A DNA stretch of 6,346 bases from Escherichia coli (GTDB lineage: Bacteria > Pseudomonadota > Gammaproteobacteria > Enterobacterales > Enterobacteriaceae): assembly GCF_036507355.1 (NCBI RefSeq), contig NZ_AP027881.1; one strand, written 5' to 3'. The position numbers and the translations under genes are program-made. Below are positions 1-6,346 of the stretch, in pieces (the first letter of the stretch is position 1; each line of letters opens with the position of its first letter). A model generated the notes under the pieces. That model was not told the DNA's origin. It made no database searches and worked only from the letters and a program-made list of their open reading frames with translations.

Positions 1-126
1 AGTCGGCGAATATCTTGAACAGGACTACTATCGGCAACTTGACGAACTATCCGTCAACACGCCTTAACTTAAACAAAATACCCTCCGCCAAACCCGGGGC
101 GGTTCACTTCTTCGACGAGAAAAACC

Positions 127-588
127 ATGCAAAACATTCTGATGAATCTGGCGTTTTATCTCCTGGTTGTTGCTGCCGGCGCCAGCTTTTCCCTGCAACA
201 GGCGGCCAACAACCATCTTCGCGCAGAACTGCTTTCACCATGGTGGGCAGGTTTCATCAGTTATGTCGGCGGTTCCCTGGCCATGCTGGTCATGGCGCTG
301 GTTTGTCGCGGCCCTGGCCTGTCATGGGATATGCTTTCGCGTACCAGCCCGTTTTCATGGACAGGCGGTATTTTAGGGGCGATTTACATTGCCACGGCCA
401 TTTTCATGATCCCGAAACTGGGAGCAACAACGGTTCTGGCATTGATGGTGGTCGGGCAAATGCTGCTTTCCCTGATGCTCGATCACTATGGCCTTCTTGG
501 TATCCCGGTTTATCCTGTCACCGGTATCCGCCTGCTGGGCGTTGTCCTGCTTGTTCTTGGGGTAGTGCTGATCAGATGGCAGGCATAA
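127..588 (+). CDS. Small inner-membrane protein, DMT-superfamily (YdcZ/DUF606-like), 153 aa
   Basis: Intact ORF; product is almost entirely hydrophobic with several predicted TM helices and resembles the DUF606 small transporter family from memory. GC-rich codon usage explains the overlapping alternative-frame ORFs. Weak GAG-type SD upstream. Stop codon directly abuts the IS6-family remnant. Confidence 0.6.
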   Translation: MQNILMNLAFYLLVVAAGASFSLQQAANNHLRAELLSPWWAGFISYVGGSLAMLVMALVCRGPGLSWDMLSRTSPFSWTGGILGAIYIATAIFMIPKLGATTVLALMVVGQMLLSLMLDHYGLLGIPVYPVTGIRLLGVVLLVLGVVLIRWQA

Positions 589-589
589 G

Positions 590-817
590 ATCAAGGGATT
601 CGAAGTCATGCGAGCCCTGCGCAAAGGACAGGCTCGCCCCTGGTGCCTGCAGCCCGGCATCAGGGGCGAGGTGCGCCTTGTGGAGAGAGCTTTTGGCATT
701 GGGCCCTCGGCGCTGACGGAGGCCATGGGCATGCTCAACCACCATTTCGCAGCAGCCGCCTGATCGGCGCAGAGCGACAGCCTACCTCTGACTGCCGCCA
801 ATCTTTGCAACAGAGCC
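590..817 (+). mobile_element. Remnant (3' end only) of an IS6-family insertion sequence, distinct from IS26
   Basis: Frame starting at 590 translates to IKGFEVMRALRKGQA...GEVRLVERAF, matching the C-terminus of the IS26 transposase in this window (KGIEVMRALRKGQASAFYYGDPLGEMRLVSRVFEM) at protein but not nucleotide level. Stop at 761-763 is followed 54 bp later by TTTGCAACAGAGCC (804-817), 13/14 identical to the IS26 terminal inverted repeat, with the same stop-to-end spacing as IS26. Confidence 0.55.
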
Positions 818-938
818 CTTGCGCGCATACTCATGCATGCCGTAAAAACAGAGCCTGCGCGTTTCTGGCGGGTTTTCGGGTGGTTTGTTGCCTGTTTTAC
901 CGGTTTCCCGTCAGAAACGCCCTCAGAGCCTCTCAGGC

Positions 939-966
939 GGTGCACGCAAGGGATGTTATGGTAAAT
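939..966 (+). other. XerC/XerD-type recombination core, site 1 (GGTGCACGCAA-GGGATG-TTATGGTAAAT)
   Basis: 28-bp site: 11-bp XerC-like arm, 6-bp central region, 11-bp XerD arm identical to the cer XerD arm as I recall it (TTATGGTAAAT). One of three direct copies in the window. Confidence 0.75.
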
Positions 967-1033
967 ATCGTTTATGTTGATTAACAAATTAAAAGATAAG
1001 ATTATTCCTACTTCTCTATTTTCTGGGGCTTTT

Positions 1034-1267
1034 ATGAAAAAGGTAATTCTCTCATTGGTTTTTCTGTCATCAGTAATTCTTGCTGGCTGCTCAAGCCAAG
1101 CAGGTCCATTTGTGACCAACATTAGCAGTGATGGTAGAGGTGGGCTTGTCGTTGAGAAATGTATGGTTCGCCTTGATAGAATGATTAATACCGTTGAATC
1201 ATCTAGCTGCACTAATTCAAGTATTACTCTGTCCTCACCATCTTCTAGCTCGACACTGACTCGTTAG
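1034..1267 (+). CDS. Small lipoprotein of unknown function, 77 aa, low GC
   Basis: ORF with signal peptide MKKVILSLVFLSSVILAGC (lipobox LAGC); GGGG 6 nt upstream of the ATG at 1034. The track ORF starts at 974, but that start has no SD and falls before the signal peptide. Ser-rich C-terminus. No family recognised. Confidence 0.55.
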   Translation: MKKVILSLVFLSSVILAGCSSQAGPFVTNISSDGRGGLVVEKCMVRLDRMINTVESSSCTNSSITLSSPSSSSTLTR

Positions 1268-1282
1268 ATTTCATGTTGCTAC

Positions 1283-1311
1283 TTGAGATTATTTAATTCA
1301 GCGGGTAGTCT
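1283..1311 (+). promoter_or_regulatory. RNA II (primer) promoter of ColE1-type replicon 1
   Basis: TTGAGA (-35), 17-bp spacer, TAGTCT (-10), positioned as in the pMB1 RNA II promoter (TTGAGA...TAATCT) just upstream of the RNA I terminator complement. Confidence 0.55.
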
Positions 1312-1321
1312 TTCGCTTGAA

Positions 1322-1425
1322 AAAGAAAAAACCGCCCTGCAAGGCGGTTTTTCGAAGGTTCTCTGAGCTACCAACTCTTTGAACCGAGGTAACTGGCTTG
1401 GAGGAGCACAGTCACCAAAACTTGT
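1322..1425 (-). ncRNA. RNA I antisense copy-number control RNA, replicon 1
   Basis: Complement of the RNA II 5' region. 5' end placed by alignment to pMB1 RNA I (ACAGTATTTGG vs ACAAGTTTTGG here); 3' end is the hairpin ACCGCCTTGCAGGGCGGT plus U-run. Ends approximate to about 5 nt. Confidence 0.7.
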
Positions 1426-2432
1426 CCTTTCAGTTTAGCCTTAACCGGCGCATAACTTCAAGACTAACTCCTCTAAATCAATTACCAGTGGCTGCTGCCA
1501 GTGGCGCTTTTGCATGTCTTTCCGGGTTGGACTCAAGTCGATAGTTACCGGAACAGGCGCAGCAGTCGGACTGAACGGGGGGTTCGTGCATACAGTCCAG
1601 CTTGGAGCGAACTGCCTTCCCGGAACCGAGTGTCAGGCGTGGAATGAGATAAACGCGGCCATAACAGCGGAATGACACCGGTAAACCGAAAGGCAGGAAC
1701 AGGAGAGCGCACGAGGGAGCTACCAGGGGGAAACGCCTGGGATCTTTATAGTCCTGTCGGGTTTCGCCGCCACTGATTTGAGCGTCAGATTTTGTGATGC
1801 TTGTCAGGGGGGCGGAGCCTATGGAAAAACGGCAACGCCGCTTCCTTTTCTCTTCCTTTCCCAATTTGATTGCTACTAGCCTACTCCTTTACTTCTGAGC
1901 CGGTAACGCCCGCCGCAGTCTCACGTCCGGAGCGTAGCGACCGAGTGAGCGAGGAGGCGTAATTTCATCGACTCCTGCATTTTTCACTTACGCCCTACAG
2001 CTACATTTTTCACCTGCCAGGGGTCAGTTTGGATATAGAGAATTATTGTACGGTAAGCCTGTTTTTTGAACAGACTTACCTATAGCAATAGGGTGTACTC
2101 CCGCGCTATACGGCATTTTCAGAGGTTTGACCTTAATCGGATAACCTAAATGCGATACTGCAAGAGCGACAACTTAAAAGCGATAGCCACTGACGCAAAA
2201 TCAACCCCTTACGAACCAAGATTGGTTAAATAATGCGCTTAACGTACAAAAATTTCCGATCTCCAAACTGACCCCTTCTTCGCCTCTTATGTTTCTCGAA
2301 TGAATCGATGGGGACAGGAAATGTTTTGTGGCCACCGCCGCTTCGCCGGCACCACAAAACTGTCGGACAAGATGTGTTTTTGGAGTACCGCCGGCACCAA
2401 AAACATTTCATCAGGCGCAGCCTGATACCCTG

Positions 2433-2452
2433 AATTTCGTACGTACGAAATT
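2433..2452. repeat. Perfect 20-bp palindrome AATTTCGTACGTACGAAATT
   Basis: Exactly self-complementary; lies in a gene-free tract that also holds two tandem hairpin units (2323-2360, 2375-2405). Confidence 0.8.
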
Positions 2453-2850
2453 TTGCTTTTGTTCAGATCGAGGGCAGGATTCGCAAAGTGCTGGCGTTTG
2501 TGCTCACATCCTTTAGACGTTGCGATGCAGGATAGGGCAGACGCCGCAAAATGACGTCATTTGCGGTATCTGCCCCGAAAACAGAATGTTTTCTCCTGAG
2601 CCTGCAGCTGGCTCTCAGAACCCCTACCGCCTCGCAAAGCTCGTTGCTCAACGCCTCACGACCGCACAGTAAACTGTGCACCCGTTCACCGTTATCGATG
2701 GGGTTCAGCGAGCCTTTTGAGCAGTTCGCAGGATTTTAGCCGCTAAAATTCCGGCCAGGCATGTTCGTGCATAGCCATGCAGATGCGCAGAAATCATCAG
2801 GCGCGTTTTTCAGGGGTTGGTGCTGGGAAAGGTGCCGGAAACGGCCCGTT

Positions 2851-2878
2851 CGCCTCAAAATGGCTCTGAGGCGTTTTC
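2851..2878 (+). terminator. Hairpin plus T-run just upstream of Xer site 2
   Basis: CGCCTCA-aaatggctc-TGAGGCG followed by TTTTC. The same GCCTCA/TGAGGC stem recurs before site 3 and in degenerate form before site 1, so it may be part of the recombination-site module rather than only a terminator. Confidence 0.35.
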
Positions 2879-2881
2879 AGC

Positions 2882-2909
2882 GGTGCGGGCAAGGGATGTT
2901 ATGGTAAAT
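2882..2909 (+). other. XerC/XerD-type recombination core, site 2 (GGTGCGGGCAA-GGGATG-TTATGGTAAAT)
   Basis: Same architecture and identical central region and XerD arm as site 1; direct orientation. Confidence 0.75.
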
Positions 2910-2944
2910 TGCTCATCACAGTAGCCAGTTAAGCAGAGGTTAGA

Positions 2945-3271
2945 ATGTTTGGGTTTTTTAAGAAAAAAAAGCTCTATGAAGAGATCTGTAAAGATGCAGG
3001 GATGGCTTTATCTGATGGGTTATTGGCCCAAGGCTTAGCGAGAAACAAAATAGAAGCAATGGGGGCTGGTGCTGTTTTTAGTCAGTCTTTGAGGGAGGCT
3101 GTTTCTCAAGGTTACAAGTCTTCTGATGCGATTGCTGAAGCAAGAAAAAACACATCTCATCATCTAGCTGCTAGAGGGTTTGATTTTGAAACGATCGCAA
3201 GTGCGATTGATGTTTTTTGTACTGCTACAGCATTTGAATCAATGTTAGATCTTGCTCGCGATAAAGGCTGA
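2945..3271 (+). CDS. Hypothetical cytoplasmic protein, 108 aa, low GC
   Basis: ORF with good SD (GAGG 6 nt upstream of ATG); no signal peptide; lysine-rich N-terminus (MFGFFKKKK). Bracketed by Xer sites 2 and 3. No family recognised. Confidence 0.6.
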   Translation: MFGFFKKKKLYEEICKDAGMALSDGLLAQGLARNKIEAMGAGAVFSQSLREAVSQGYKSSDAIAEARKNTSHHLAARGFDFETIASAIDVFCTATAFESMLDLARDKG

Positions 3272-3303
3272 ATATCGAGAGGAGTGACGGGTTGTTATCA
3301 TTA

Positions 3304-3330
3304 GCCTCAGAGTAGATTTGAGGCCTTTTG
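3304..3330 (+). terminator. Hairpin plus T-run after the 108-aa ORF, immediately upstream of Xer site 3
   Basis: GCCTCA-gagtagatt-TGAGGC followed by CTTTTG, 33 nt after the ORF stop; same stem as the site 2 hairpin. Confidence 0.4.
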
Positions 3331-3333
3331 GGC

Positions 3334-3361
3334 GGTGTATGCAGGAGATGTTATGGTAAAT
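3334..3361 (+). other. XerC/XerD-type recombination core, site 3 (GGTGTATGCAG-GAGATG-TTATGGTAAAT)
   Basis: XerD arm identical to sites 1 and 2; XerC arm and central region diverged; direct orientation. Confidence 0.7.
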
Positions 3362-3428
3362 ATGTCTTATTGAGAATATTCTTACTAATGCGCGGTTTTT
3401 TTCTAATTTTTAAATGGATGACTTAAAA

Positions 3429-3806
3429 ATGAAGGCAAGATTTTTTGCAGCCTTGCTTATTACTTTTTTTCTTTCTGGATGTGCGACAGAGGCGGGATAT
3501 CAAAGGGTATTAAATTCATGGATGGGATCTACTGATGTGAGCTTGATTCAGTCATGGGGGCCGCCTCAGCAATCTTATGAACTTTCTGGCCATACCTTCC
3601 TAGTTTATTCAAATAGCTCTAGCTCTTATATACCTGGAGTGGCTCCTACCTATCAGACTACGTTTATTGGTAATACAGCGTATACAAACACCTATGGCGG
3701 CTCGCCCGGCTTTAATGTTAGCTACTCATGTACTACGACTTTTGAGGTTGTTGGCGGGAAAATTGTTAACTGGCGTTATCAGGGCAACAATTGCACATCG
3801 CGTTAG
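3429..3806 (+). CDS. Lipoprotein of unknown function, 125 aa, low GC
   Basis: Signal peptide MKARFFAALLITFFLSGC (lipobox LSGC). Start at 3429 preferred over the track start at 3414 because it begins the signal peptide. Mature part is Ser/Thr/Tyr/Gly-rich with two Cys near the C-terminus. No family recognised. Confidence 0.65.
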   Translation: MKARFFAALLITFFLSGCATEAGYQRVLNSWMGSTDVSLIQSWGPPQQSYELSGHTFLVYSNSSSSYIPGVAPTYQTTFIGNTAYTNTYGGSPGFNVSYSCTTTFEVVGGKIVNWRYQGNNCTSR

Positions 3807-3973
3807 TCGTGTGTCCAATCGTAGTATCAGGTGAAGATACAATAGAGAACTTAATACCCTCTTGGTGGGTATATAAAAACCAAGATGAGCGTAGCGACCT
3901 TCTTTAAACTCGTTCCTTGTGTGTCTTACCCTGCAAAAGGTTTGATTGTGTGGGTGTAAATGAAATCGTTGCG

Positions 3974-4003
3974 TTGACAGTTACATGTGACGAGATGTAG
4001 TCT
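3974..4003 (+). promoter_or_regulatory. RNA II (primer) promoter of ColE1-type replicon 2
   Basis: TTGACA (-35), 18-bp spacer, TAGTCT (-10), directly upstream of the RNA I terminator complement. Confidence 0.55.
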
Positions 4004-4011
4004 CTAAAACG

Positions 4012-4112
4012 AAAAAACCGCCCTGCAAGGCGGTTTTTTCGAAGGTTCTCTGAGCTACCAACTCTTTGAACCGAGGTAACTGGCTTGGAGGAGCGCAGTC
4101 ACCAAAACTGTT
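4012..4112 (-). ncRNA. RNA I antisense copy-number control RNA, replicon 2
   Basis: Same reasoning as replicon 1 RNA I; terminator hairpin ACCGCCTTGCAGGGCGGT plus U-run at the 3' end. Ends approximate. Confidence 0.7.
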
Positions 4113-4693
4113 CGTTTAGTTTAGCCTTAACCGGCGCATAACTTCAAGACTATCTCCTCTAAATCAGTTACCAGTGGCTACCGCCAATGGCGATTTGTCG
4201 TGTCTTTCCGGGTTGGACTCAAGACGATAGTTACCGGAACGGGCGTGGTAGTCGGACTGAACGGGGGGTTCGTGCATACAGTCCAGCTTGGAGCGAACTG
4301 CCTACCCGGAACTGAGTGTCAGGCGTGGAATGAGATAAACGCGGCCATAACAGCGGAATGACACCGGTAAACCGAAAGGCAGGAACAGGAGAGCGCACGA
4401 GGGAGCCACCAGGGGGAAACGCCTGGGATCTTTAAGTCCTGTCGGGTTTCGCCACCACTGATTTGAGCGTCAGATTTCGTGATGCTTGTCAGGGGGGCGG
4501 AGCCTATGGAAAAACGCCCGCCGGGGCGTGGCCTTTTCGCCCTTGTCCTTAGCTTTCGTTATGCTTACCGTTACGTTATCTGCTTATCCTCCCTCCGCTC
4601 GCCGCAGACTCATGACCGAACGGAGTGAGCGAATGAGCGAGGAAGCGGAAAACAATCAGAACGTACAGTAAGCACTTTCGCGCCGGGGCCTTC

Positions 4694-4885
4694 ATGAACA
4701 AACAACAAAAGACAGCCGTTAACATGGCTAAATTCATCCAGGATCAGTCCCTGCTTCTTCTGGACAGGCTTAATGAGCTGGATCTGGATCATGAGGCTGA
4801 TTTCTGCGAGAAACTCCATGAGGATGCGGAACGCCTTTACCGAAGCCTGTCAGCGCGCCTGAATGAGCAGCAGGACGGTGCGTAA
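4694..4885 (+). CDS. rop: Rop/Rom (RNA one modulator) homolog, 63 aa
   Basis: Same length as pMB1 Rop, with clear similarity along the whole protein as recalled (MTKQEKTALNMARFIRSQTLTLLEKLNELDADEQADICESLHDHADELYRSCLARF vs MNKQQKTAVNMAKFIQDQSLLLLDRLNELDLDHEADFCEKLHEDAERLYRSLSARL here). Confidence 0.85.
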   Translation: MNKQQKTAVNMAKFIQDQSLLLLDRLNELDLDHEADFCEKLHEDAERLYRSLSARLNEQQDGA

Positions 4886-4898
4886 TGTCTCCGTTCTG

Positions 4899-4918
4899 GG
4901 TATTACCGGAGTAATACC
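4899..4918. repeat. Perfect hairpin/palindrome GGTATTAC-cgga-GTAATACC downstream of rop
   Basis: 8-bp perfect stem with 4-nt loop. A second palindrome with the same half-site, TATTACC-cc-GGTAATA, lies at 4957-4972. Confidence 0.6.
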
Positions 4919-5188
4919 GGCATCGCCTTAATTTTCATTGTCTTAGCGCTTAACATTATTACCCCGGTAATACCCACAATCCCTGTATTTTTTCTTTTTT
5001 ATTTATTTTTCATGAAGTTGCGATGAAAATCGCAGCTGCGTTAGGTGTATGACCATTTTGAGGTTGAAAAATAATCAACCATGGCGGGTGATTTACGCAG
5101 GTTAAGGGGAGATCGTGACAAAAAAAAGCGTTCCTCACTGTATCGTTCATGCCTGCATGAACGGGTTATTCTTCCTGACTACAGAATT

Positions 5189-5340
5189 ACATCGCTCCTT
5201 CAGTTCATACATCACTTTTACAACACTTTTACAACACTCCTTCGGCCTGTACATCACTTTTACAACACTTTTGCATCACTTTTACATCATTTATACATCA
5301 CTTTTACATCATTCCTTCAGCTCATACGTCACTTTCATCC
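5189..5340. repeat. Tract of roughly 11-bp tandem repeats (core ACAxCACTTTT), iteron-like
   Basis: Repeated units ACATCACTTTT / ACAACACTTTT / GCATCACTTTT / ACATCATTT across about 150 bp, bracketed by direct repeats CCTTCAGTTCATACATCACTTT (5197-5218) and CCTTCAGCTCATACGTCACTTT (5314-5335). The ORFs the track predicts here are repeat-translation artefacts. Confidence 0.7.
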
Positions 5341-5526
5341 TCTGTGCCATTTGTACATCACCCCCTTCCTGAACGTGCTGACAGCGGGTTTTCCGGCTGC
5401 GCCGGCAACGCTTCACGGCCACGCAATAAATTGCGTCCCCGTTCACCGTTTTCGGATGGGAAGAACGCCGGAAACAGGACTTCCCCTGGCTGAATGGTGT
5501 GAATTTCCGCGCTATGCACTTGCGCG

Positions 5527-6346
5527 GGCACTGTTGCAAAGTTAGCGATGAGGCAGCCTTTTGTCTTATTCAAAGGCCTTACATTTCAAAAACTCTGCTT
5601 ACCAGGCGCATTTCGCCCAGGGGATCACCATAATAAAATGCTGAGGCCTGGCCTTTGCGTAGTGCACGCATCACCTCAATACCTTTGATGGTGGCGTAAG
5701 CCGTCTTCATGGATTTAAATCCCAGCGTGGCGCCGATTATCCGTTTCAGTTTGCCATGATCGCATTCAATCACGTTGTTCCGGTACTTAATCTGTCGGTG
5801 TTCAACGTCAGACGGGCACCGGCCTTCGCGTTTGAGCAGAGCAAGCGCGCGACCATAGGCGGGCGCTTTATCCGTGTTGATGAATCGCGGGATCTGCCAC
5901 TTCTTCACGTTGTTGAGGATTTTACCCAGAAACCGGTATGCAGCTTTGCTGTTACGACGGGAGGAGAGATAAAAATCGACAGTGCGGCCCCGGCTGTCGA
6001 CGGCCCGGTACAGATACGCCCAGCGGCCATTGACCTTCACGTAGGTTTCATCCATGTGCCACGGGCAAAGATCGGAAGGGTTACGCCAGTACCAGCGCAG
6101 CCGTTTTTCCATTTCAGGCGCATAACGCTGAACCCAGCGGTAAATCGTGGAGTGATCGACATTCACTCCGCGTTCAGCCAGCATCTCCTGCAGCTCACGG
6201 TAACTGATGCCGTATTTGCAGTACCAGCGTACGGCCCACAGAATGATGTCACGCTGAAAATGCCGGCCTTTGAATGGGTTCATGTGCAGCTCCATCAGCA
6301 AAAGGGGATGATAAGTTTATCACCACCGACTATTTGCAACAGTGCC
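5527..6346 (-). mobile_element. IS26 (IS6 family), complete 820-bp copy
   Basis: 14-bp terminal inverted repeats GGCACTGTTGCAAA at 5527-5540 and its reverse complement at 6333-6346; length 820 bp; encodes the canonical Tnp26 sequence. The element ends at the last base of the window. Confidence 0.95.
5579..6283 (-). CDS. tnp26: IS26 transposase Tnp26, 234 aa
   Basis: Translation MNPFKGRHFQRDIILWAVRWYCKYGISYRELQEMLAERG...GEMRLVSRVFEM matches IS26 transposase as recalled. The track ORF carries a 6-codon upstream extension (MLMELH) that is probably not translated. Confidence 0.95.
   Translation of the reverse strand: MNPFKGRHFQRDIILWAVRWYCKYGISYRELQEMLAERGVNVDHSTIYRWVQRYAPEMEKRLRWYWRNPSDLCPWHMDETYVKVNGRWAYLYRAVDSRGRTVDFYLSSRRNSKAAYRFLGKILNNVKKWQIPRFINTDKAPAYGRALALLKREGRCPSDVEHRQIKYRNNVIECDHGKLKRIIGATLGFKSMKTAYATIKGIEVMRALRKGQASAFYYGDPLGEMRLVSRVFEM

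Follow-up and report, generated by a model that had tools for sequence, protein, structure and literature searches.

A probable cointegrate of small ColE1-type plasmids joined at host XerC/XerD sites in Escherichia coli

Introduction

Xer sites on ColE1-like plasmids have mainly been seen as dimer-resolution sites guarded against fusion, and the ArgR/PepA synapse normally restricts cer-like sites to resolution. A hybrid of the cer and parB cores, whose central region has 6 bp and which was studied by Summers in 1989, reportedly recombines intermolecularly without accessory factors. The orientation of the Xer site in ColE1-like plasmids is fixed relative to the origin, with RNAII transcription entering from the accessory side (PMC2831885), and recombination at cer and mwr halts after XerC exchange (PMC2699498; PMC5357621). 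A survey of small enterobacterial plasmids described accessory sequences at all of their Xer sites (PMC11724359), and such sites are known crossover points in the evolution of ColE1-like plasmids (PMC6764390; PMC8683028). Gene modules bounded by Xer sites are regarded as a speciality of Acinetobacter, and their mechanism is debated. A 2026 paper calls the dif-module system unique to Acinetobacter (PMC13141974), and Xer-dependent cointegrates have been demonstrated in that genus (PMC11705084).

Here we analysed a 6,346-bp stretch of Escherichia coli DNA, hereafter the window, with three Xer sites that the original prediction, made from the sequence alone, had read as an array of single-gene cassettes. 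The window is quite likely a cointegrate of small ColE1-type plasmids joined at host XerC/XerD sites, and our best reading is that host XerCD recombination would fuse such plasmids and shuffle modules among them.

Results and discussion

Three Xer cores in direct orientation

Cores of the cer/mwr/parB type were defined by two 11-bp arms, for XerC and XerD, on either side of a central region of 6-8 bp. A pattern search of the window gave exactly three matches of 28 bp, all on the plus strand and in direct orientation, and none arose by chance in 200 shuffles, which confirms the three direct cores that had been predicted.

939-966, + strand: Xer core 1, GGTGCACGCAA GGGATG TTATGGTAAAT
2882-2909, + strand: Xer core 2, GGTGCGGGCAA GGGATG TTATGGTAAAT
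3334-3361, + strand: Xer core 3, GGTGTATGCAG GAGATG TTATGGTAAAT

The succession of 11-bp XerC arm, central region and 11-bp XerD arm at sites 1-3 fits the cer/mwr/parB type. All three have exactly the XerD arm that ColE1 cer, pJHCMW1 mwr and CloDF13 parB carry, as extracted from the reference plasmids, the XerC arm of site 1 is the mwr arm of pJHCMW1, and the central region GGGATG is that of CloDF13 parB, while the XerC arm of site 3 is degenerate. Sites 1 and 2 form a direct repeat and have the same central region, and an ARG-box-like element is kept at both. As both RNAI genes of the window lie on the minus strand, RNAII is on the plus strand, and all the cores run from XerC to XerD on that strand, an orientation relative to the ColE1-type origin that agrees with the published rule (PMC2831885). 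Judged by sequence, the three appear to be genuine cer/mwr/parB-type host XerC/XerD sites and to be recombination joints.

A whole plasmid between sites 1 and 2

The spacing of sites 1 and 2 is exactly 1,943 bp and encloses a whole replicon. Window positions 933-2909 make up one full turn of p655Rt_9 (L001) at 99.85% identity, a ColRNAI plasmid of 1,943 bp whose type is found free in six PLSDB records.

967-2881, + strand: integrated 1,943-bp plasmid body, with gene 1, a ColE1-type origin (origin 1) and a cer-like accessory region of its own
1323-1423, - strand: RNAI of origin 1 (Rfam RF00106, 92.6 bits)
4009-4110, - strand: RNAI of origin 2, that of the 3.18-kb plasmid lineage (Rfam, 95.8 bits)
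4694-4885: rop, annotated in the relative L002

The two ColE1-type origins are 94% identical to each other, and the Rfam search of the window returned nothing beyond the two RNAI genes. Because interval 1 is a complete ColE1-type plasmid, the structure would be a plasmid cointegrate, and what had been taken for a single-gene cassette is a 1,943-bp plasmid with its own origin and RNAI. Window positions 1-966 and 4995-6346 match pLR-62-2_8 (L003), which has the IS-bearing backbone in common with the window, at 99.5-99.9%, and this homology stops at base 966. Site 1 is a hybrid joint with its left half from the mwr-type backbone (L003) and its right flank from p655Rt_9 (L001). Site 2 is likewise hybrid, its XerC side coming from the 1,943-bp plasmid and its central region and XerD side from the gene-2 unit described below. 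Positions 2870-5455 match a 3,181-bp K. pneumoniae plasmid, itself with three direct sites.

The 1,943-bp backbone also lies between two hybrid cores in p16EC-9K, and an analogous Xer-joined cointegrate is present in the independent finished record FDAARGOS_1306 unnamed3. Elsewhere the same backbone is fused or linked with tet(X4) and qnrS1 plasmids. The junctions of the window, and the cointegrate as such, had no match in PLSDB or in 5,426 complete E. coli genomes, so the cointegrate rests on one sequence. As the two ends of the window adjoin in a relative, it is probably a complete circular 6,346-bp mosaic with two ColE1-type origins.

Accessory regions and the IS26 insertion

An accessory region was taken to be ~180 bp of sequence beside the XerC arm that contains an ArgR (ARG) box some 100 bp upstream of the core, and the ARG boxes in the window were assigned by alignment only.

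818-938, + strand: truncated mwr-type accessory region of site 1 (alignment with pJHCMW1 mwr, ColE1 cer and CloDF13 parB)
2649-2881, + strand: full cer-like accessory region of site 2 (alignment)
5527-6346, - strand: IS26, forming the left part of a unit of 1,637 bp (IS26 / DMT-transporter / IS6100-like end)

The IS unit runs on into window positions 1-817 and sits inside the accessory region of site 1, with an 8-bp target duplication (CTTGCGCG) at 5519-5526 and 818-825. The proximal 121 bp of this region are left at the site, including an ARG-box-like palindrome cgcatactcatgca at 824-837, and the distal part is found at ~5360-5526, displaced by 1.6 kb. With the insertion removed, the region aligns near-identically to mwr, and it is uninterrupted in the relatives L013 and L004. 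At site 2 the palindrome tgcatagccatgca stands at 2768-2781, ~107 bp upstream of the core, and the accessory region is 80% identical to that of L002. Site 2 has, and site 1 had before the IS unit inserted, a cer-like accessory region with an ARG-box-like palindrome ~105 bp upstream. Alignment found no accessory region at site 3, where the upstream sequence is the coding region of gene 2 and the only cer-type resemblance is a hairpin of ~35 bp upstream.

The 452-bp gene-2 unit

2893-3344, + strand: gene-2 unit, 452 bp, with an occupied/empty pair and varied partners
2945-3271, + strand: gene 2, a 108-aa ORF inside the unit
3304-3324: terminator-like hairpin of the unit

Gene 2 had been predicted to be exactly bracketed by sites 2 and 3, and the two sites, 452 bp apart, do enclose its ORF. 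The unit comprises the central region and XerD arm, a leader with a ribosome-binding site, the ORF, the terminator-like hairpin and a XerC arm that belongs to the unit itself (GGTGTATGCAG). Two plasmids, L005 (3,849 bp, occupied) and L012 (3,397 bp, empty), are 99.8% identical except for a 452-bp indel at the core. The central region of the empty site is GAGATG, the same as at the right-hand site of the occupied form, so the crossover falls before central position 2, where XerC cleaves, and outside the 15-bp block of identity, a placement that hangs on one polymorphic base.

The unit has at least six partners on its left and at least five on its right, and homology breaks at the junction of XerC arm and central region. 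This re-assortment of left and right halves was seen in 17 records, as well as in metagenome and assembly contigs, and the Rep_3 homologue shares these boundaries. The central region GGGGTG adjoins the gene-2 flank in L074, so the central region is sometimes separated from the XerD side. Boundaries of the same kind delimit a 90-aa unit in two contexts, related 3.18-kb plasmids carry an array of 90-aa, 108-aa and 125-aa genes with three direct sites, and one contig (L085) has four sites. Chromosome-like homologues of gene 2 were without Xer sites, and the contexts with sites are all small plasmids. The predicted discreteness of the 108-aa gene is borne out by the occupied/empty pair and by its many different neighbours, and the gene-2 unit appears to be a real Xer-bounded one-gene unit, the only portable one among the three intervals.

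Cargo genes and expression signals

1034-1267, + strand: gene 1, a 77-aa predicted lipoprotein with a signal peptide and LAGC lipobox, cargo of the 1,943-bp plasmid
3429-3806, + strand: gene 3, a 125-aa predicted lipoprotein with an LSGC lipobox

Longer ORFs start at 974 for gene 1 and at 3414 for gene 3. The distance from the XerD arm to the start codon is 67 nt for gene 1 (7 nt for the longer ORF), 35 nt for gene 2 and 52 or 67 nt for gene 3, and the GC contents of genes 1-3 are 0.38, 0.42 and 0.41 against 0.49-0.56 in the flanks, in keeping with the expected low-GC orphan gene shortly after each core. Gene 3 has site 3 on one side and origin 2 on the other, and no Xer site closes it downstream. 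All 10 of the contexts sampled have it behind gene 2, as part of the backbone of a common 3.2-kb plasmid lineage, at odds with its being a cassette of its own.

The three proteins had been thought unplaceable, and Pfam, NCBIfam, PADLOC and PHROGs indeed gave them no named family or function. Matches to the gene 1 protein were at the level of the signal peptide only. The gene 3 protein hit PHROG 3716 (function unknown, E = 3.9e-17) and has homologues on Pseudomonas chromosomes with 57-59% identity. A confident AlphaFold model of the gene-2 protein (pLDDT 87) has five helices, and its matches are uncharacterised proteins only. Consensus scans of the window for promoters and terminators stayed at chance level. 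The idea that a cer promoter drives the cassette genes was dropped, as the hairpins upstream of the cores had no significant excess stability over shuffles (best z = -1.7).

Proposed assembly and its alternatives

The recipient would have been a plasmid of ~4.4 kb that already had an mwr-type Xer site with its accessory region split by the IS26-bounded insertion, followed by the 452-bp gene-2 unit, the core-only site 3, gene 3, a ColE1-type origin and rop. Relatives of this plasmid, and not its exact form, were found in the databases searched; in two of them (L080, L081) an mwr-type arm runs straight into gene 2, the arrangement expected of the proposed recipient. Recombination between its Xer core and the one Xer site on the free plasmid of 1,943 bp would have enclosed an entire second replicon between two hybrid cores in direct orientation, sites 1 and 2. 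The gene-2 unit may be an older outcome of the same chemistry, its gain and loss taking place precisely at the Xer core. As for cer and mwr, XerC would swap the top strands at the boundary of XerC arm and central region, and the Holliday junction would then be resolved by replication or host enzymes. The accessory sequence and XerC arm would thereby re-assort against the central region, XerD arm and cargo, and modules could move either through plasmid fusion at one pair of sites and resolution at another or through integration of an excised circle. With a truncated accessory region at site 1 and a bare core at site 3, the ArgR/PepA synapse probably cannot form there; fusions could then arise and their resolution would be slowed. 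A working resolution system should separate the direct sites 1 and 2, which counts against this reading; the IS-split accessory region may be the reason why they persist together. The anatomy, breakpoints, occupied/empty difference and re-assortment are read directly from the aligned records, whereas catalysis by Xer, the route of strand exchange and the part played by the accessory defects are deduced from them.

The array originally predicted, an integron-like series of three independent single-gene cassettes excised or captured as small circles between neighbouring direct sites, is unlikely. The exact 452-bp difference between occupied and empty forms and the many contexts of the gene-2 unit suit it, as do the 3.18-kb plasmids with their three genes and three direct sites. 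However, interval 1 is an entire 1,943-bp replicon, and gene 3 lacks a closing site and was never found without gene 2. No junction of a circle formed by the 452-bp unit by itself was seen, directly repeated plasmid Xer sites did not excise in Acinetobacter tests (PMC11705084), and fusion followed by unequal resolution would give the same occupied and empty forms as the predicted excision of circles. A 1,141-bp circular-looking contig, identical from two metagenomes, joins the gene-2 unit to one other segment and would favour circles, but it lacks a recognisable origin and, at one of its junctions, a canonical XerC arm, and it was set aside as evidence for an excised circle on these grounds. 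Arrays are also rare: a scan of 100,044 species-representative genomes gave 48 loci with such a core, at most one of them with a possible second direct site, and either Xer arrays are uncommon or the contigs are too fragmented to display them.

Two further explanations dispense with Xer joining altogether. The joints could stem from the 15-21 bp shared by the cores, through RecA recombination or replication slippage; the cores have GATGTTATGGTAAAT (15 bp) in common, sites 1 and 2 share up to 21 bp, slippage between short direct repeats can give precise deletions, and high-copy plasmids offer many opportunities. This is very unlikely, as the crossover of the occupied/empty pair falls left of central position 2 and outside the identical 15 bp, and the breakpoint recurs in numerous independent combinations, among them some in which the central regions differ at position 1 (an identical XerC arm is followed by CAGATG, GAGATG, GGGGTG or GGGATG), and also where the XerD arms differ (L025). 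Sequence divergence upstream of the cores is too great for homologous recombination. An assembly chimera of one isolate's separate small plasmids, produced through shared Xer cores and similar origins, would account for an arrangement that is in no database searched and whose components exist as free plasmids, and two 94%-identical origins with shared cores are typical graph tangles. We nevertheless hold a chimera to be highly improbable: identity at the junctions is just 17-21 bp, under the usual assembly k-mers, two hybrid sites 1,943 bp apart are what reciprocal site-specific integration predicts, and Xer-joined cointegrates occur in the independent finished records named above (p16EC-9K and FDAARGOS_1306 unnamed3).

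Under the preferred reading, a cointegrate joined at Xer sites, the locus supplies a cointegrate apparently caught in place, an occupied/empty pair for a 452-bp unit and natural core-only sites. As the hosts are E. coli and Klebsiella-type plasmids with easy xerC, xerD, pepA, argR and recA genetics, fusion with unequal resolution can be directly tested against circle excision and capture. The locus also suggests how tiny plasmids acquire and pool cargo.

Comparison with known systems

Plasmids with cer, mwr or parB have one site per molecule with an intact accessory region, used for dimer resolution, whereas the window has three sites, which also mark joints of fusion and exchange, with the accessory region split by the IS unit at site 1 and missing at site 3. 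Site 3 and the site of the 90-aa unit, being core-only, are exceptions to the survey of small enterobacterial plasmids (PMC11724359).

With the pdif/dif modules of Acinetobacter the locus shares short Xer-bounded gene units in varied backbones, weak or degenerate XerC arms and the lack of a recombinase of their own. The Acinetobacter modules have inversely oriented sites (Blackwell and Hall; PMC11705084), whereas all sites are direct in the window and in related arrays, a contrast that the original prediction had drawn correctly. The occurrence of a module with site boundaries in different backbones is matched here by the gene-2 unit only, the hosts are small ColE1-type and Rep_3 plasmids of Enterobacterales instead of Acinetobacter plasmids, and the cargo consists of orphan genes in place of resistance genes. 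Closer to our reading is the model of Xer cointegrates and unequal resolution (Cameranesi 2018; Balalovski and Grainge 2020; PMC11705084), with which the window has in common two replicons, matching central regions and hybrid junction sites, and which likewise exchanges modules without free circles. Experiments on such cointegrates come only from Acinetobacter, whereas the present case is deduced from sequence and concerns ColE1-type sites that normally have a topological filter against fusion.

The oriT-fusion model for small enterobacterial plasmids, as other papers cite it, also has a Xer site bounding variable regions and cointegrate intermediates; there fusion occurs at oriT and Xer resolves, whereas both fusion junctions here are Xer cores and the 452-bp unit has Xer cores on both sides, and the two data sets may overlap. 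Integrative elements of the IMEX kind (VGJ-phi type phages) resemble the proposed integration in the window in the use of host XerCD, XerC-side exchange and two flanking direct sites (PMC5357621). Their target is chromosomal dif, whereas here it is a cer-like plasmid site, and the integrated elements are a plasmid and a 452-bp gene unit without replication or transfer functions.

Integron cassettes, too, are promoter-poor single-gene units in one orientation beside a primary site, each with its own half-site end. They depend on IntI, attI and attC, whereas the units of the window end in Xer half-sites that host XerCD would recombine, and the Xer arrays are short and rare. The window has no integrase ORF, and the only recombination-type enzyme that it encodes is the IS26 transposase. 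It is conceivable, if rather doubtful, that an integrase-free gene-cassette system run by host XerCD exists in small plasmids of Enterobacterales, in which orphan genes with a terminator and a weak XerC arm insert at a cer-like site and stack directly behind core-only sites, and in which accessory damage, here by IS26, turns a resolution-only site into one of capture and fusion. Xer modules and Xer cointegrates are already known, and the locus resembles them; what would be new is their occurrence in ColE1-like plasmids of Enterobacterales with directly oriented sites.

Xer cores of the window

A degenerate 28-bp core pattern was matched three times in the window, always on the + strand, and not once in 200 shuffled sequences, which bears out the original prediction of three Xer cores in a single orientation. 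The classical cer, mwr and parB cores were taken directly from reference plasmids for comparison.

Xer cores of the window (degenerate 28-bp pattern) and of reference plasmids
939-966, + strand, site 1: XerC arm GGTGCACGCAA, central region GGGATG, XerD arm TTATGGTAAAT
2882-2909, + strand, site 2: XerC arm GGTGCGGGCAA, central region GGGATG, XerD arm TTATGGTAAAT
3334-3361, + strand, site 3: XerC arm GGTGTATGCAG, central region GAGATG, XerD arm TTATGGTAAAT
cer (ColE1): XerC arm GGTGCGTACAA, central region TTAAGGGA, XerD arm TTATGGTAAAT
mwr (pJHCMW1): XerC arm GGTGCACGCAA, central region CAGATG, XerD arm TTATGGTAAAT
parB (CloDF13): XerC arm GGTACCGATAA, central region GGGATG, XerD arm TTATGGTAAAT

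The XerD arm of all three window cores equals that of cer, mwr and parB and is thus the canonical plasmid one. The mwr site has the same XerC arm as site 1, and parB shares the central region GGGATG with sites 1 and 2. An orphan gene had also been proposed close behind each core, with low-GC cargo, and both features were found: an ORF starts 35-67 nt downstream of every core, and the cargo has a GC content of 38-42% against 49-56% in its surroundings.

The window as a probable cointegrate of small plasmids

The segments of the window were assigned by BLAST against plasmid records and by local alignments, and its two ColE1-type origins, marked by RNAI genes, are 94% identical to each other.

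Origins and plasmid segments of the window
1323-1423, - strand: RNAI gene of origin 1 (Rfam)
4009-4110, - strand: RNAI gene of origin 2 (Rfam)
4995-6346 + 1-966: E. coli plasmid pLR-62-2_8, 99.5-99.9% identity
933-2909: one full turn of p655Rt_9 (1,943 bp), 99.85% identity
2870-5455: 3,181-bp K. pneumoniae plasmid, 98.2% identity

Homology to pLR-62-2_8 ends precisely at base 966, and as both ends of the window adjoin each other in that plasmid, the window is probably circular and complete at 6,346 bp. The spacing of sites 1 and 2 is exactly 1,943 bp, which together with the full-turn match to p655Rt_9 indicates that the first supposed cassette is an entire replicon, apparently integrated via its single Xer site. 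Site 1 is a hybrid with its left half from the recipient and its right flank from the 1,943-bp plasmid, and site 2 is the reciprocal hybrid; judged from these junctions, the anatomy of the window appears to be that of a site-specific cointegrate. The window cointegrate was absent from the databases searched and is a single observation, and it might be read as an assembly chimera; this is unlikely, as only 17-21 bp are common at the junctions and analogous structures are present in finished records. The 1,943-bp plasmid was found free in six records, and in the tet(X4) plasmid p16EC-9K its backbone also lies between two hybrid cores. The same cryptic backbone recurs in p3_025985 (qnrS1, 5,847 bp) as well as in p16EC-9K (tet(X4) and estT, 9,228 bp). 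This tiny replicon participates in the building of resistance plasmids.

A 5,647-bp contig (ENA ERZ1310095) has four direct Xer sites and is probably a further cointegrate joined at such sites: an array encoding products of 90, 108 and 125 aa is followed by the fourth, GGTGCACGCAA CGGATG TTATGGTAAAT, with a gene for a HindIII-like restriction enzyme behind it. A 6,421-bp contig (ENA ERZ28662445) holds the 3.18-kb three-site plasmid repeated head-to-tail and represents a dimer of that plasmid or else an error of assembly.

The gene 2 unit

In the 3,181-bp plasmid and related ones, each of three direct sites has one gene behind it, the products being 90, 108 and 125 aa long. The 108-aa unit (gene 2, 452 bp between sites 2 and 3) was also found, without gene 3, in plasmids of 3,849 bp that belong to a different replicon group. 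The two flanks of the unit were joined and used as a query for empty sites, which recovered 3,397-bp plasmids with a contiguous match at 99.8% and a length difference from the occupied form of exactly 452 bp. The empty site, as in pXD35007, reads GGTGCGGGCAA GAGATG TTATGGTAAAT, and the occupied form reads GGTGCGGGCAA GGGATG ... gene 2 ... GGTGTATGCAG GAGATG. As the polymorphic central base segregates with the XerD side between the two forms, the crossover would lie at the junction of XerC arm and central region, outside the 15-bp block common to both sites. Slippage or homologous recombination could also be held to set the unit boundary; this is argued against by the crossover falling at the XerC cleavage position and not in the 15-bp identical block.

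Further partners were collected from a metagenome scan for the right end of the unit and from the contexts of gene 3. On its left the unit adjoins the 1,943-bp plasmid, the 90-aa unit, the pABW_A32c backbone, an mwr-type arm (contexts L080 and L081), GGTGCGAACAA (L084) or GGTGCGGGCAA GGGGTG (L074), and on its right gene 3, the pABW backbone, a 294-aa ORF, a 106-aa ORF or a Pantoea-plasmid segment. The unit boundaries are unchanged for a 94%-identical gene 2 homologue on Rep_3 plasmids, and the 90-aa unit shows the same boundary type in a second context. Tabulated across contexts, left halves (accessory region and XerC arm) re-assort with right halves (central region, XerD arm and cargo). The expectation that gene 2 occurs as a Xer-flanked unit in differing backbones is supported by the occupied and empty plasmids and the many partners on either side.

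Homologues of gene 2 at 79-82% identity lie in large or chromosome-like contigs, and no Xer sites were found around them. A 79%-identical protein homologue on a 134-kb contig (GCA_902363335.1 and a related contig), likewise without a Xer site, has an Rpn-family (Transposase_31) gene on one side and macA/macB-like efflux genes on the other; the cassette gene may stem from such a chromosomal copy. An 8-kb Rep_3 plasmid (JGI 3300014734) has three Xer-like sites, all oriented alike, at positions 572, 1108 and 3938. The last of them has a 7-bp central region and leads the 94%-identical homologue, so the direct multi-site arrangement is not confined to ColE1-type replicons. Two identical circular-looking contigs of 1,141 bp from two metagenomes (JGI Ga0181471_105474 and Ga0115853_103717; 127-bp terminal overlap) consist of the gene 2 unit and a 59%-GC segment, which in the Pantoea plasmid pPSP-b98 lies immediately downstream of a Xer site. 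They have no recognisable origin, and at one junction a canonical XerC arm is missing; candidate readings are a two-module circle that was excised, a tandem array and an assembly cycle.

Genes 1 and 3

Gene 1 is the cargo carried by the 1,943-bp plasmid. Gene 3 has no closing Xer site in the window, homology to other ColE1-type origins restarting near 3870 downstream of it, and it stood behind gene 2 in all 10 sampled contexts. The proposed three-cassette array thus holds for the middle interval, which alone of the three appears to behave as a Xer-bounded unit, and fails for the other two. None of the cargo proteins could be assigned a function, in agreement with their description as lacking a family; the products of genes 1 and 3 are predicted lipoproteins, and that of gene 2 is modelled as a small five-helix protein.

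Accessory regions and the IS26 insertion

The 230 bp upstream of each window core were aligned with cer, mwr and parB. Site 2 has a complete cer-like accessory region with an ARG-box-like palindrome ~107 bp upstream, and that of site 1 is nearly identical to mwr after removal of a 1,637-bp insertion.

Insertion in the accessory region of site 1
5527-6346 + 1-817: 1,637-bp insertion in the mwr-type accessory region, comprising IS26, a DMT-family transporter gene and an IS6100-like end
5519-5526 and 818-825: 8-bp target duplication CTTGCGCG flanking the insertion
127-588: DMT-family transporter gene (153 aa) within the insertion

The unit ends in a complete IS26 on one side and on the other in a terminal fragment of ~218 bp, which we take to come from an IS6100-like element; the two outer inverted repeats of the unit differ at 1 base in 14. 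Lying directly beside the ARG box, the insertion moves the distal half of the accessory region away from the core; the region is uninterrupted in the comparison records L013 and L004. Between rop and the accessory region, at 5208-5311, an 11-bp motif, TACATCACTTT, is repeated 9.6 times (74% matches); this array is also present in the related plasmids L002 (the 3,181-bp plasmid), L003 (pLR-62-2_8) and L004.

Site 3 and the site after the 90-aa gene are core-only, with coding DNA and a terminator-like hairpin upstream and XerC arms degenerate beside the cleavage point. A survey reported accessory sequences at all Xer sites of small enterobacterial plasmids and 28-bp sites without them almost only on large replicons (PMC11724359), a rule to which these two sites are exceptions. 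They resemble extra XerD-arm sites in two reference plasmids, where a second perfect TTATGGTAAAT follows a degenerate XerC-like arm and a 6-bp spacer: CCGGCGGACAA CGGATG at ~457-484 of pJHCMW1, and GCGCCCAGCTT GCGACG on the - strand of CloDF13.

Proposed mechanism

At cer and mwr, XerC swaps one strand pair and the Holliday junction is processed otherwise (PMC2699498; PMC5357621). The window breakpoints, as far as sequence can tell, fit such chemistry, and from them we infer Xer catalysis. The accessory synapse normally limits recombination to resolution, and sites without it may permit fusion and resolve poorly, which would explain the persistence of a cointegrate with an IS-damaged site 1. 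The unit could move when plasmids fuse at one pair of sites and then resolve at a second pair, or through excised circles, and both routes could be compatible with the data. For Acinetobacter, where cointegrates were detected and excisions were not, the fusion-then-resolution model is favoured (PMC11705084).

Comparison with known systems

Xer arrays of this kind are rare among species-representative genomes, and the 90/108/125-aa plasmid lineage is common in gut metagenomes. In the literature covered by our search, no account was found of core-only Xer units in direct orientation that carry a single gene and exist both occupied and empty on small plasmids of Enterobacterales. In ColE1-like plasmids, Xer sites as the limits of variable regions and small-plasmid cointegrates have already been described (PMC6764390; PMC8683028). 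Xer-bounded modules and Xer cointegrates are also known from Acinetobacter, where the sites are inverted (PMC11705084), whereas all those of the window are direct. IMEX likewise integrate via host Xer recombination, but their target is the chromosomal dif (PMC5357621), while the events in the window would have taken place at plasmid Xer cores.
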